A stretch of DNA of 64,000 bases from Octopus vulgaris (Eukaryota). The notes under the pieces are model-generated. The model saw only the letters and a list, made by a program, of their open reading frames with translations, made no database searches and had not been told where the DNA came from. Positions within the stretch are counted from its first letter, which is position 1; each line of letters opens with the position of its first letter. Below, piece by piece: positions 3,101 through 55,300 of the stretch. The position numbers were made by a program, and so were the translations under genes. The stretch lies in the NCBI GenBank assembly GCA_951406725.2, contig OX597824.1:3658001-3722000 (forward strand). Direction: 5' to 3'.

Positions 3101-6100
3101 GAACAACCACAATAATCATACCGAAGCAGACGCTGGAGCCTGAGTGGAGAAAATTTAAAATAAATAATGTGACGTACAAACAGTGAAGACAAATATGAAA
3201 TAACACTGAAGTCAATTTTCAGAGAGAGAGAGAGAGAGAGTGAAAGAAACAGATATCTATATGTGAAAGTGAGAAAAAGAATTAGAGATAAATACAGAGA
3301 GAGAGAGAAAAAAAAAGTGGGATGATTGCTTGAAAAGTACAACAGTCGAAGGGAGAGAATCGCTTGAAAACTGCAGAAGTCGAAGAGAGAGAATTTGACT
3401 GTAAAACAGCTTTTTTTTTTGTTTTTGAGAAAAACCCATGTACGGAAATTTTTTTCTTGGTCAATTTGTCACATTAATTGGGAGCTCTAAGCAAAATGTT
3501 ATGGTGCATGACCATCCATGGCATATAAGTAATGTGTGTGTAAAGTTTGGTGAGAATCAGTTGAAAACTAGAAATACATATTACACACACAGACATCCTT
3601 TGTTTTATATATATATAGATTATAGATCTCACCTTATAAAGCTGACAATTGTTTCTATTGCATATATATATATATATATATATATATATATAAAAGGAAA
3701 GTTTACGAAAATTAAACAAAAGATGAAGGCAGGTGGAGTACAAACAAACAAATGTATTAGTATAACGCTCAGGAATAGAAAAAGTCTTTTACGTTTCGAG
3801 CCTACGCTCTTCTACAGAAAGGGACACAGAAAAAAACAAGGAGAGAAAAAAAATATATATATATATATACGCTCATATGCATATATATCTAAAAAACGTT
3901 AAAATTAATATTAATATCCTTGAAAATATATGTTAACACAACATTATGAAGGCTACCCAAAATTAGTGAAATTCAAAAACTCTGAATTTCTCATAACTCT
4001 GCAAAGGATATTTGGATTTTACCTGTCTTGCAGGGTAATTTACCTGGGATCTGTATTCCATTTACATTTACTAAGTGACAGGTGAGGATTGGCAACACAA
4101 TGGGCATCTGGTTGTAGAAAATCTACCTGAAACTTCATCTGACAGGTGCAAGCATAGAAAAGTGGGTGTTAAAATGATTATGATGATGATATTGTGACAG
4201 GCTTCATTCAGTTTCTGTTTGCCTGATACATTCTCAAGGATTTGGTTTGTCTCAGGCTATATTAGAAGACACTTACCCAAGGTGCTGTACAGTGAGACTG
4301 AACCCCAAACCACATGGTTGGGAAGCAAGCTTTTTAAATGAACCTATTGTAAAGTAAAAAAAAATTAAAAAATATATATATAAAGAAGACTTACACTCCA
4401 GAAATGTGTCAACTATCTCCCCCCCCTCTCTCTCTCTCTCTCTCTCTCTCCCTCCCTCTCTCTCTCTCTCTCTCTCTCTCTCTCTCTCTCTAGCTAGCTT
4501 CCAATCTGTCTGTTTATCTTGTGACATTAATGTCTTTCAAATTCATTCTCTTAAATGTCTCTAAATGTCAGCCACTTTTCGTCTGTTCTCGTCACTGTAA
4601 GTGTAGTGGCAAAAGGGACAAATAGATAGACAAATTAGTTATTGATCTAATCATCATCATTATCATTATCGTTTTACGTCCGTTTTCCATGCTGGCATGG
4701 GTTGGAAGGTTTGACTGGGGTCTGGGAAGCCAGGAGGCTGCACCAGGTCCCAATCTGATCTGGCAGTGTTTCTACAGCTGGATGCCCTTCCTAATGCCAA
4801 CCACACTGAGAGTGTAGTGGGAGCTTTTTACATGCCACTGGCACAAAGGGCCAGAGGAGCTGGCATTGACCACAATCGATGGTGCTTTTTACATGCCAAC
4901 GGTACAGAAGCCAGTCAAGGCAGCTCTGGCATCGGCCAAGTTCTGATGGTGCTTTTTATGTGTTACTGGCAGGGGGCTCACAACTACAATTTCCATTTGA
5001 TTTGATTTTGATATTGCTGTTGATGTTGATGTACTTGACTCAATAGATCTCCTCAAGCATGGCATGGCGCCCTACAATCCAAGGTACTTTTGAGTTGGCT
5101 GGTTATATGACACTGATGTTGGTTACAGCTGTGGACTCACTTTATTGGCCGGGTCTTCTCAGTCACAGCATATCGCCTGAGGTCTTGGTCTTCTGTCATT
5201 GCCTCTGAGAAGCCCAACATTCGAAGGTCATGCTTCACCACCAAATCCCATGTCTTCCTGGGTCTCCCTCTTCCACAGGTTCCTTCCACTGTTAAGGAGT
5301 GACACTTCTTCACACGACTCTCCTCGTCATCCGCAGTACATGACCATACCAACGCCAACATCTCTCTTGCATTCCACATCTGATGCTTCTTATGTCTACC
5401 ATTTCTCTCAGGGCTCTTACACTCTGTCATGTGTGCACACTGACGTTACACATCCAGCTTCATTTCTTTCGAGCCTTATCAGTAGGGTGTGATATGGGGG
5501 AGATTTGGATGCTATTTCTTGCAAGAAGAGCAACCATTTAGAGCAGGAATGCACACTTTCTTGTTTGAGAAGTGGACCACATGAGACATGGCTCACACTA
5601 CTAAAAGGTGATTTTCCATTAGGTATGCCATTCAGAAAGTCCTGCAAGCTGGTACTTGCTCATGACTCATATTCTAGAGGTTCTCACATTCAGTTTCTGT
5701 AGATAAAGAGCATATTCTAAATTAATAATTTTGTCTTTTTTTTTCTCCTCCATTTTCTATTCCAGATCAAACTGCATTTTTCGTCATTGTTCTCTTGACA
5801 ATAATATTTCTAAGTGGTGAGTATTTTTTTGTTATCTCATGTTTGTTTATCTGTGGGAAAACGAGCTAGCTTTATATCATCATCATCATCATCACCATCA
5901 CCTTCAACATTTAGCATCTGCATTCCATGCTGGTATGGATTGGATGGTTTGACAAAATCCAACCATCCAAAGGACTGTATCAAGCTCCTTTTGTCTGTTT
6001 TTGGTATTGTTTCTATGGTTGGATGCCCTTCCCAATCGCAACCATCTTACAGAGTGTGCTGGATGTTTTCTCGTGTCACCAACACTAGTGCAGTTGCCAA

Positions 6101-52300: not shown

Positions 52301-55300
52301 TGTGATAACTATCCGCTTCTCGTCTTTTCGCTTGTAGCTTATCTTCAAGATTGTTTAACTGTTCCTGGAAGTCAACAGTCTAAAAAGAAGAAAAAAATGG
52401 TAAAATTCATGCTAAATATGTTTTCTAGCTAGAAATAACAATTACTCAGAAATAATAATTACTCGAGAGGTACCCTTCATTGAGTAATTATTACCTCCAA
52501 AGTTCTGCTCGTTAGGAAGCATATGTAACCTGGATTTTATCCGCTCCATTTTCCTCAATTTGGATTTTTATTTACATTCATAGCAACCCTTGTTGCTAAA
52601 CATGAACGATAAAAAGACTTTTTCCCAGCTTCTCAAACCTCAATGTAGGAAAACCTACAACTATCAATGCCAATAGAATAATATCGTTTCTGAAAGTTGT
52701 TTTCTTTACCTACCATGCACTGCTCAAAGCTTACTAACTCTCTACACCTAAATCCTTGTGTATGTGTATGAGTGTCTGTGTGTGTATGTATATATATATA
52801 TATATATATATATGATATATGATAGATATATATATGATATATCATATTATAAAATTCTATATGTGGCTGAAGATTGCTCGACATTTTAAAACTGATGTAA
52901 TACTTATAGTGTTTAATAAAATGAAGTAGCATGAAACGATTGTACTACTCTACCTTGGATATCCTTGTTGCTTATTTTGATTATAATCACCCCATTTGAT
53001 TTATATGGATAATACCATACCAAATTCTGGTGCTTCTAACTTAAGTACCAGATTCATCTGAATCTAAATTTTGCTGAACTTATATTTATATATATATATA
53101 TATATATATATATTTATATATATATGGGTTCAAACTTTTACTAATTTACTATAAAGAAAAAAACAGAGGAGAAGGAATAGCACATAAAAAACACAACAGT
53201 GGAGTCTTTGAGAGGGAGAAGAGAAGTAAAAATAAAAGAAAAAGAAAGCAAAAGAGAAGTAGTAAATTTATGTCTACCAATATAGAAATTTCTTTCTCAT
53301 GCTTCTTTTGGAGTTCACAGACTTCTTTTTGTAATCGGTCAATCTGGAAATCAGAAATATATATTTATAGATTGGTTTCGGGAAGGGCGTCCAGCTGTAG
53401 AAACCATACGAAAATCAGGCTGGAACCATGGTGCGGCTCTCCAGCTTGCCAGTTTCAGTCAAAGAATCTAACCCATGCCGACAATGGAAAGTGGATGCTA
53501 AATGACGATGATGATGATGATGATGATACATACAAAGGGTAAAGACCTCCTTTCGTGATGATTGACCATGGGATTGCACCTAGGAAGTTCCCCTCCAAGG
53601 CACAAATCCGGGCAAGGTTGTTAATGGAAGACCTGCAGTCGGCCATGCATACCAGCTTCCCCTGTCCCACGCCAGTGATGTTATCTAAGAGAAAGGCAAA
53701 GGGGCCGATACAGCTTGGCACCAGTAACATGGCTACTCATTCCTACAGCTGAGTTAACTGGAGCAACGTGAAATAAAGTGTCTTGTTCAAGAACACAACA
53801 TGCAGCCTGGCCTGGGAATCGAACTCACTACCTTGTGATTGTGAGACTGACACTAACCACTGAGCCATGTACCTTCACATACATATATACATACATACAT
53901 ACATATATACATACATACATACCTATATACATATATAACAGAAGAATTCAGAACTGGATGGCCATGGGAACTACTATATAATAATAATAATAATAATGAA
54001 ATTATTGTATACAGTGCTCAGGTGCACCACAACTTGTCAAAAGAGCGCATAAAGCATATGCAGTAATGCACAAATATCTGGAAAGTGAAGAGTGTATGAG
54101 TCAGACACGTGGTGGTGGTGGTGGTGATCATGATGATGATGATGACTGCTATTTATAGCAAATCTTCATAGGATCCCTCATCTCTCTTTCTACATTAGTG
54201 AAAAAAAGGGAGTATTCATAGAAACATCAGACTGAAAAGGATTGGAATTAAAGATCATAAAGCATTTTTGTCCCACACTCTACCAATTCCGTTCACTGAT
54301 ACTCTACCAACCGATTCCCTCTCTTCTCTACCCTGTCATATTCTACCCACCCAATTTGTGACCACTCTATTACTAAGTCATCCACTTCTCTAACAACCCA
54401 TCACAACTAGAAATCTCTCCCTCTCACCTTATCCTTCATCATCCCTACCACACACCTAGAGTTAATGTTCACTCTTCTATTCTCTCTCAGTTATGGGGGC
54501 CACTTTAGGTCATTAGTCTTGCAAATTACAAGACAATAATTCCTAGTGCTGGTGCCACAAAAGAAACCCCCAGTACACTCTGTAAAGTGGTTGGGAAGGG
54601 CATCCAAGCCATAGAAACCATTCCAAAGCAAACAATGAAGCATGACACAGTTCTTTGACTCATCAGGTCTCAGCAAACCATCCAGCACCCATTCCAGCTT
54701 GGAAGACAAGCATTTAATGACAATGACGATGATGATGATGATGACGATGATGATGACGATGATGATGATGATGATGATGACAGCAATGATGATAATAAAT
54801 TCACTTATGCTCTACCAATTCTGCCAATGAATCCACATTCTCCAGAATTGGCATATGGACACCAAATACTTTCTCACACTCATAGCAATCCATGCAGAAG
54901 TCAAAATTTACACACCCATTCAACCATGGTTCCAGCCTAACTAAAGAACAAATGAGAGAAACACTGAAAGAAATGCCAGCATACAGATTCGTCTTTTTTG
55001 CCATCTTGGTTTTTCAGATAGTTCAGCACTTCGATGGTGTCCCATTCAACCTGGCAGATCTGACTTTGCAGGGATTCATTTTCCATGAGCAACTTAAAGG
55101 CATATTCCCTGGAAATAATAAAACATAAAAAGAAAAGAAACAAAGGAAAAAGGACAGATGATGTGGGAAGGGATGATGAGATGAGAAGAGGCTGAGGAAG
55201 GAAAGATGGAAGAAAAATGACAAAAACAACCTAACCCTAACCCTAAAATAAGGAAGGAGACTACAAGCAAGTGAAAGAAAAGAACTCCCTAATTCTGTCC

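Follow-up and report, generated by a model that had tools for sequence, protein, structure and literature searches.

The window analysed here, a stretch of 64,000 nt from Octopus vulgaris (contig OX597824.1, positions 3,658,001-3,722,000; genome of 2.8 Gb), carries short insertions of eight families, designated A to H, and the hammerhead ribozyme fold holds at the family level in seven of them, failing in the one at 27.6 kb. We consider it highly probable that these are hammerhead-bearing 3' ends of several lineages of Penelope-like elements (PLEs), four of them with protein-coding parents, together with two units devoid of open reading frames (ORFs) that likely borrow machinery, and that the ribozymes are likely slow, dimer-dependent cutters. 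An earlier note on this DNA had named 11 stretches, the letters of which agree with its description in all 11 cases. Its recognition of PLE-type, type I hammerheads with a palindromic stem III in often inverted insertions was borne out; its proposal of one non-autonomous system of mini-elements was not, since families B, C, D and E appear to be truncated ends of autonomous PLEs. The insertions and their hammerheads are the following:

3693..3848, minus strand: family D, putative 3' end of a Neptune-type PLE, with a minimal hammerhead at 3786-3821 and the A6U core CUGUNGA
9133..9421, unstranded: family F, fold-back of an apparently ORF-less unit of ~215 bp; tail at 9133-9196, in the left arm only; short target duplication; outside (TA)n
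9296..9344, plus strand: family F hammerhead, GUGAACA, with swapped 3-8 pair (G3-C8), palindromic stem III and U17
15030..15446, minus strand: family A, one copy of a closed, apparently ORF-less head-to-tail unit of ~475 bp; (TA)n flanks
15197..15247, minus strand: type I hammerhead of family A with the core CUGAAGA and a palindromic stem III; cleavage predicted after AUC
19225..19427, plus strand: family H, 3' end related to D, with a minimal hammerhead at 19294-19328, CCGACGA (U4C); window copy decayed
26346..26508, minus strand: second copy of family D, hammerhead at 26446-26481, stem III decayed
28879..29502, unstranded: family C, fold-back of inverted pseudo-long terminal repeats (pseudo-LTRs); tail from 29437, in the plus arm only
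28911..28970, minus strand: family C hammerhead, U4C core CCGAAGA, the family state
36600..36836, minus strand: family E, putative Hydra-type PLE 3' end, whose hammerhead (36707-36826) has CUGAGGA as the family core and CUUAGGA here
36966..37385, unstranded: family B, fold-back of two inverted, putatively Hydra-type PLE 3' ends; tail of ~90 bp, in the minus arm only
37095..37182, minus strand: family B hammerhead, CUGAAGA, long stem II
37261..37348, plus strand: family B hammerhead, CUGAAGA
52846..53080, plus strand: family B, 3' end truncated on its 5' side and flanked by (TA)n runs; the hammerhead spans 52862-52948

Two self-written hammerhead descriptors, each tolerating one core change, found five sites each in the window, against 0.78±0.79 (maximum 3, n=40) and 0.98±0.92 (maximum 3, n=100) in dinucleotide-preserving shuffles; canonical-core sites numbered three, against 0.1 and 0.02 in the shuffles of the two descriptors. 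Combined, the descriptors recover 6 of the 11 named sites (3786, 15197, 28911, 37095, 37261 and 52862) and miss decayed window copies: those at 26446, 36707, 9296 and 19294 belong to families whose genomic copies fit the fold. The full set of features (core, stems, G10.1-C11.1 pair and palindromic stem III) is present in families A, B and E, with C, D, F and H departing in the core. No hammerhead family was among the best 150 of 203 matches in an Rfam scan of the window, and the earlier note's expectation that standard hammerhead models would miss the variants holds for the cores that are family states. Self-BLAST of the window confirmed the four long fold-backs that had been described (9197-9421, 27598-27900, 28879-29434 and 37058-37385) and gave no DNA match between families at an E value of 1e-5. 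A run of (TA)4 or longer lies within 30 nt of an end in 9/10 elements, the ends having been set by hand, against 9.7% of random positions; the (TA)n setting claimed for these elements thus applies to nine of the ten and not to family F, which lies 2.3 kb from the nearest such run.

Each element was searched against its own genome, with the best 40 candidates scored per DNA search and 25-30 loci taken. First-look candidate counts were 1,002 for A, 3,448 for B, 744 for C, 714 for D, 204 for E, 3,766 for F, 266 for G and 2,199 for H. In the copies the 3' end is fixed and the 5' end ragged or inverted, a tail is confined to one arm and the targets are (TA)n or AT-rich; (TA)n follows the fixed element end in 155 of 175 loci of six families; inverted arms were seen in 8/30 loci of A, 6/30 of B, 14/30 of C, 2/30 of D, 7/30 of E and 1/25 of H. 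A fixed 3' end, 5' truncation or inversion and a one-sided tail match published PLE features (PMC8557442). Direct pseudo-LTRs or partial tandems occur in C, E and A (the head-to-tail unit), and none was seen for B, D, F or H. An upstream, same-strand ORF for PLE reverse transcriptase (RT) or GIY-YIG endonuclease was present in 23/30 loci of C, 2/30 of E and 1/30 of B, and in 0/60 loci of A, 0/60 of F and 0/25 of G. Linkage to PLE ORFs, on which the earlier reading turned, was hence found for B, C, E and, as described below, D, and not in the loci of A, F and G.

Families B, C and E read as 5'-truncated 3' ends of Hydra-type PLEs. The canonical hammerhead core is found in B and E. It is CUGAAGA in 28/30 loci of family B, whose ORF, represented by a Hydra-like endonuclease end only, is 35% identical to that of family C; more divergent B relatives with other stem III palindromes lie in the flanks of two loci (L037, L102). 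In family E the core is CUGAGGA in 20/30 loci, and the CUUAGGA listed by the earlier note occurs in 1/30, the window copy itself, being a private mutation. The E ORF has DKT and CxCx5C, with RIK at the place of RWK, and one locus (L143) shows in tandem an endonuclease, a 3' untranslated region (UTR), a hammerhead and the next RT. In family C the core CCGAAGA was present in 30/30 loci, thus differing from the canonical Hydra-clade core, and the plus-arm hammerhead of the window copy, near 29342-29402, has decayed to CCAAAGA. A full C element (L182) consists of a pseudo-LTR, an RT/GIY-YIG frame of ~2.1 kb and a second pseudo-LTR, with CCGAAGA in both repeats, and the tail of the window copy equals the sequence 3' of the upstream pseudo-LTR in that locus. 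This element appears to be a young Hydra-clade PLE of ~2.5 kb: 39 of 40 listed matches are 99% identical to the query, and it bears the marks of the clade, namely RWK, DKT, a CxCx5C linker, a length below 3 kb and a (TA)n target. The placement comes from motifs and by-eye comparison with Hydra-1_Obim. The C tail (29437-29502) was also seen beside insertions of other families (L047, L242), which suggests that it is common to several Hydra-like families or often left alone; further, L181:4387-4812 is a ~90%-identical sister subfamily of C.

Family D appears to be the end of a Neptune-type PLE. In two loci (L303, L300) it runs via a 3' UTR rich in pyrimidines and CA into a C-terminal GIY-YIG frame, which matches PF01541 at E 0.002, below the curated cut-off, and resembles Neptune rows by eye; the Pfam matches of the PLE fragments to GIY-YIG and RVT_1 were all sub-threshold. 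The D cores (n=30) were CUGUCGA in 15, CUGUAGA in 9, CUGUUGA in 3, CUGUGGA in 1 and other in 2, and a query without the hammerhead gave CUGUCGA in 22/30. The CUGUAGA of the earlier note is therefore present, within a CUGUNGA group that has four forms differing at N7. Families D and F were also checked in contigs (four runs under three organism labels, at 80% likeness, the summed depth being no copy number). There, N7 of family D takes any of the four bases, N17 is U or A and CpG sites decay, with no change of at least 5% at U6 or other core positions; as it varies, CpG sites apart, just at the positions that the consensus leaves free, the fold looks constrained despite A6U. In both families the fixed core, GAAA and the non-CpG stems are unchanged at that threshold, but for N7, N17, loop II and one wobble. 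Flanks diverge between D-group subfamilies. Family H aligns to D downstream of the motif, and its core is CCGACGA in 21/25 loci; of the weaker cases in the earlier note, this one at 19294 stood and the one at 27615-27675 did not. No parent ORF was found for H in the fetched loci, and two endonuclease matches upstream of H copies, considered as a possible parent, seem to belong to neighbouring D-like insertions.

The U4C of families C and H, the A6U of the D group and the G3-C8 of family F are family states, as is CUGAAGA in A and B. Genome-wide, the minimal-motif pattern of D and H with the core left free gave 37,561 matches, and the F-flank pattern, likewise with a free core, 1,305; the reversed controls gave 0 in both cases, and the relaxed-core search thus exceeds background in the window and the genome alike. 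Among the first 100 listed of the 37,561, all from the start of one contig, 59 were CUGUNGA, 20 CCGANGA, 11 CUGANGA and 10 other, and some canonical H-type copies may have arisen by CpG decay from CCG. Among the first 100 listed of the 1,305, 85 were GUGAACA and 0 CUGANGA; 9 of 30 fetched loci are one insertion amplified in a larger repeat, so the matches are not independent. Because in published mutagenesis the 3-8 swap rescues, other changes in the CUGA region are low in activity, and the natural variants A6C and U4C are slow, F is predicted to be able to cut, as are the canonical cores, and C, D and H are predicted to cut weakly.

Of the families, only A and F look ORF-less. Family A has the core CUGAAGA in 28/30 loci, its 3' end recurs 470-480 bp apart, and in a BLAST search with a linker query its tail joined its own unit start in 29/30 loci (for ~25 nt in the thirtieth), with no ORF after the linker in those loci. 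Family A would be a non-autonomous PLE derivative or a retrozyme-like unit. Tandem arrays with at least two complete hammerheads were absent from 60 loci, which hold at most ~1.5 units, and second hammerheads occur in inverted arms. As for stem covariation, in 28 A hammerheads from 27 loci 94.4% of cells are paired, with U-A/C-G swaps in stem II (6 cells) and in the stem III palindrome (8 cells); double-change cells numbered 14, against 4.6 in shuffles (0/500). Families other than A and F are too uniform to show it.

Family F has the core GUGAACA in 23/30 loci. Its start lies no more than ~25 nt before stem I (60 loci), with no shared sequence beyond that point, nor in the listed contig ends, and its tail of ~60 bp lies in one arm only. 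Duplications of at least 8 non-TA bases flank 15 of 22 parsed copies, variable in length, with target duplications of 8-12 bp; the one-sided tail and the duplications point to a reverse-transcribed insertion rather than to a miniature inverted-repeat transposable element (MITE). In contigs, no change of at least 5% was seen in its core, GAAA or stem III, and the changes present affect CpG sites, loop II and one U-A pair of stem I, which becomes a U.G wobble. A closed circle was considered and rejected, as the tail never rejoins the start in 50 tail ends. Two converging F pairs 2.7 kb apart, considered as transposon ends, proved to be inverted copies of a composite repeat. This repeat, longer than 2 kb, comprises an F fold-back, a ~107 bp minisatellite and pieces resembling a short interspersed element (SINE) (L242 = G000:C1:5022413-5025445; also in L249-L251, L259, L264-L267, L270 and L271). 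It has been amplified at 96-98% identity, also as large inverted duplicates, with one G3-C8 hammerhead as a passenger; its hairpin-plus-CTAG end is Helitron-like.

The remaining features of this kind in the window are one more fold-back and two PLE relics:

27565..27900, unstranded: family G, fold-back with a PLE-like one-sided tail, in (TA)n; no credible hammerhead in the part covered
13671..14159, plus strand: decayed fragment of a Hydra-type PLE that reaches from the RT thumb to the linker and shares 31% identity with the protein of family C
38681..40925, plus strand: decayed RT/endonuclease relic of PLE type, from another lineage and split by a SINE-like repeat

The hammerhead proposed at 27615-27675 was rejected: its core would be CUGACAA, with no stem I beside it, and the tail of family G makes the sense strand opposite to that of the proposed fold. 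Copies of G are 95-99% identical, that is, young. Both relics noted earlier are real, yet the suggested tie between them and the families was not sustained: the first has 31% protein identity to family C, the second matches no family protein, and no family-type hammerhead follows either, the only candidates being two core-like words without stems. The first relic is also opposite in strand to family A; the second matches protein P0001 at 36-72%, its sole protein homologue, which is labelled Octopus vulgaris. Pfam gave nothing in either relic frame. The nearness of the relics to the families may reflect no more than repeat density.

Elsewhere in the window, three further fold-backs were observed (22031-22162, 35733-36114 and 56142-56529), with no hammerhead found inside by the descriptors. 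Positions 23825-24602 hold a 62 bp tandem array of 12.5 copies with 98% matches, which has grown out of the 3' portion of a SINE-like repeat that is abundant. A decayed frame at 14438-14776, between the Hydra-like relic and family A, resembles the end of a mariner-type transposase. The minus-strand open frames 43066-43437, 45545-45835 and 54937-55230 resemble exons of a host coiled-coil gene; if they are, many of these insertions would be intronic.

With the integration of these observations, the insertions can be explained by a mechanism in which, as inferred from known PLE biology, the PLE endonuclease would nick AT-rich DNA and the RT would copy PLE RNA from its 3' end, stopping or folding back early and leaving short pieces, with A and F using the PLE machinery in trans. 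The palindromic stem III would pair two hammerheads of a tandem transcript into an active dimer, freeing unit-length RNA; such palindromes are described as letting PLE hammerheads act as dimers (PMC4209133). The earlier note had cited direct or inverted pseudo-LTRs as known carriers of such dimers; the arms of a fold-back lie on opposite strands, so a single transcript would lack a dimer partner, and the antisense second copy would mask the first. In the A6U and U4C lineages, the motif is likely retained as an attenuated ribozyme or as a structure.

Several observations weigh against this reading. The search for parents of A, F, G and H gave none, the ORF link of B was seen in only one of 30 loci, and that of D in two loci of a second search, covering the endonuclease part only. 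As only the best 40 candidates were scored per search, the family tallies lean towards the query. The excess of core over flank conservation within copies is slight, at 0.993/0.955 in A, 0.996/0.977 in D, 0.978/0.952 in F, 0.967/0.958 in E and 0.990/0.981 in B, with no significance test, and in H the core is not higher (0.980/0.984). Covariation in A is confined to two pairs, with a pair count not above shuffles (446/500), and its alignment dropped 3 of 30 loci, including two that are visibly broken. Folding of the entire F unit was not better than in shuffles (z -0.94), and stem covariation in F is limited to the wobble. Further, minimal PLE hammerheads are reported to cleave poorly even as dimers (PMC4209133).

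A possible, though in our judgement not probable, explanation of the variant cores is that the A6U and U4C motifs are dead ribozymes, in which an inactivating change in a master copy has hitchhiked as PLEs need no hammerhead. The low activity of single changes in the CUGA region (PMC9901934), the slowness of A6C and U4C (PMC3088659), the proliferation of Naiad PLEs without canonical hammerheads (PMC8557442) and the weak core-versus-flank conservation in H all agree with it. However, every one of the four bases occurs at N7 in the D group, and N17 is variable too, with the rest of the core and the stems fixed, although the flanks diverge, and U4C is found in two unrelated lineages, C and H, the former very young.

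It is rather unlikely that all families form one non-autonomous, retrozyme-like system spread via circular RNAs. Family A, closed and ORF-less, with its tail running into its own start, is what such a system would contain, and F shares no sequence beyond its short upstream segment; yet PLE ORFs adjoin the ends of B, C, D and E, which refutes it for these four, no long A tandem arrays occur in the fetched loci, and the F tail never runs into its start. Less likely still, family F would be a MITE with a coincidental hammerhead-like fold. The window copy and 30/30 loci of the first search have the form of 220-250 bp fold-backs, the unit carries a short inverted motif at either end and no ORF parent was found; nevertheless, a query blind to the arms finds many F copies without inversion, the inversion point varies, and the one-sided tail and duplications of variable length contrast with the fixed symmetric terminal inverted repeats and fixed-length target duplication of a MITE, none of which F has. 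Moreover, its motif has a 7 bp stem I, a bulged G, the G10.1-C11.1 pair, a palindromic stem III and a paired 3-8 swap. Finally, the view that the folds match by chance in repeat DNA rich in AT stands for G, given the failed case at 27.6 kb and about one relaxed-core match expected per shuffled window, and is refuted for A-F and H, where it is extremely improbable, by the excess of window and genome matches over the controls and by the location of the motifs where PLE hammerheads are known.

The preferred reading, of hammerhead-bearing ends of several PLE lineages, can be compared with known systems. Already in print are hammerheads in PLEs, their truncated solo copies and inverted pairs, a Hydra example from an octopus and the origin of retrozymes from PLEs. 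Truncated PLEs have been described as the source of thousands of solo copies, along with inverted pairs spaced by 100-700 bp (PMC4209133), and retrozyme-type units have been derived from PLE pseudo-LTRs (bioRxiv 10.64898/2026.07.22.740005). Hydra-1_Obim is listed with a hammerhead of canonical core, in sense orientation near the 3' end (PMC8557442); it resembles family C in its length of ~2.5 kb, RWK, DKT, CxCx5C, C-terminal GIY-YIG and (TA)n target, in a 4 bp stem III closed by one base and, by eye, in long stretches of protein. In contrast to the U4C of family C, all Hydra-clade cores listed in File S2 of that paper are CUGANGA, and B and E differ from Hydra-clade PLEs in stem II extensions of ~60-90 nt and 3' UTRs of ~1 kb. 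Families D and H share with minimal metazoan PLE hammerheads the bulged base after A9, G10.1-C11.1 and GAAACGUH (PMC4209133). Family A resembles non-LTR retrozymes (PMC7229834) in being short, ORF-less and arranged head to tail and in its canonical type I hammerhead, and differs from them in its dispersed insertions of 1 to 1.5 units in (TA)n, PLE-type inversions and lack of tandem arrays; F differs in not being a closed unit.

What appears new is the abundant families with fixed core variants, the overall system being known. In the literature searched, which took in subscription papers and supplements only in part, we found no natural family with G3-C8, A6U or family-wide U4C, and, with equally partial coverage, no report of these families among octopus hammerheads. 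A bolder claim, which we put forward with considerable doubt, would be that this is the first abundant natural G3-C8 hammerhead, on an ORF-less mini-retroelement of ~215 bp, together with tens of thousands of A6U/U4C folds under selection despite crippled catalysis. If true, PLE hammerheads would be retained for a tuned-down or non-catalytic role, for instance RNA dimerisation or RT recognition, and the octopus genome would be a natural mutational series for testing that role; the role of the hammerhead in endonuclease-bearing PLEs is stated as unclear (PMC8557442). As one genome has canonical, compensated (G3-C8) and predicted-weak (A6U, U4C) cores in families that have spread successfully, a very young one among them, the rate of cleavage could be set directly against success in transposition. 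A search that fixes CUGANGA would miss most hammerhead-like PLE ends here, to judge from the 11 canonical cores in the first 100 listed matches.

Regarding the variants themselves, the published metazoan PLE descriptor has a fixed core; the variants in the parts covered are U3-A8 and one UUGAAGA, and A6U, U4C and G3-C8 are neither among the Fig. S3 rows covered nor among the results of a term search of that file (PMC4209133). U3-A8, A6C and the U4C of a viroid are natural core variants, all of them rare (PMC3088659). The C20G+G25C double mutant, equivalent to the 3-8 swap, is the sole rescuing one in the CUGA region (PMC9901934), and G3-C8 performed better without C17 in one unpublished observation (PMC3884650), family F having U17. 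Known natural core variants are rare, whereas here the variants constitute the majority state in families of thousands to tens of thousands of copies.

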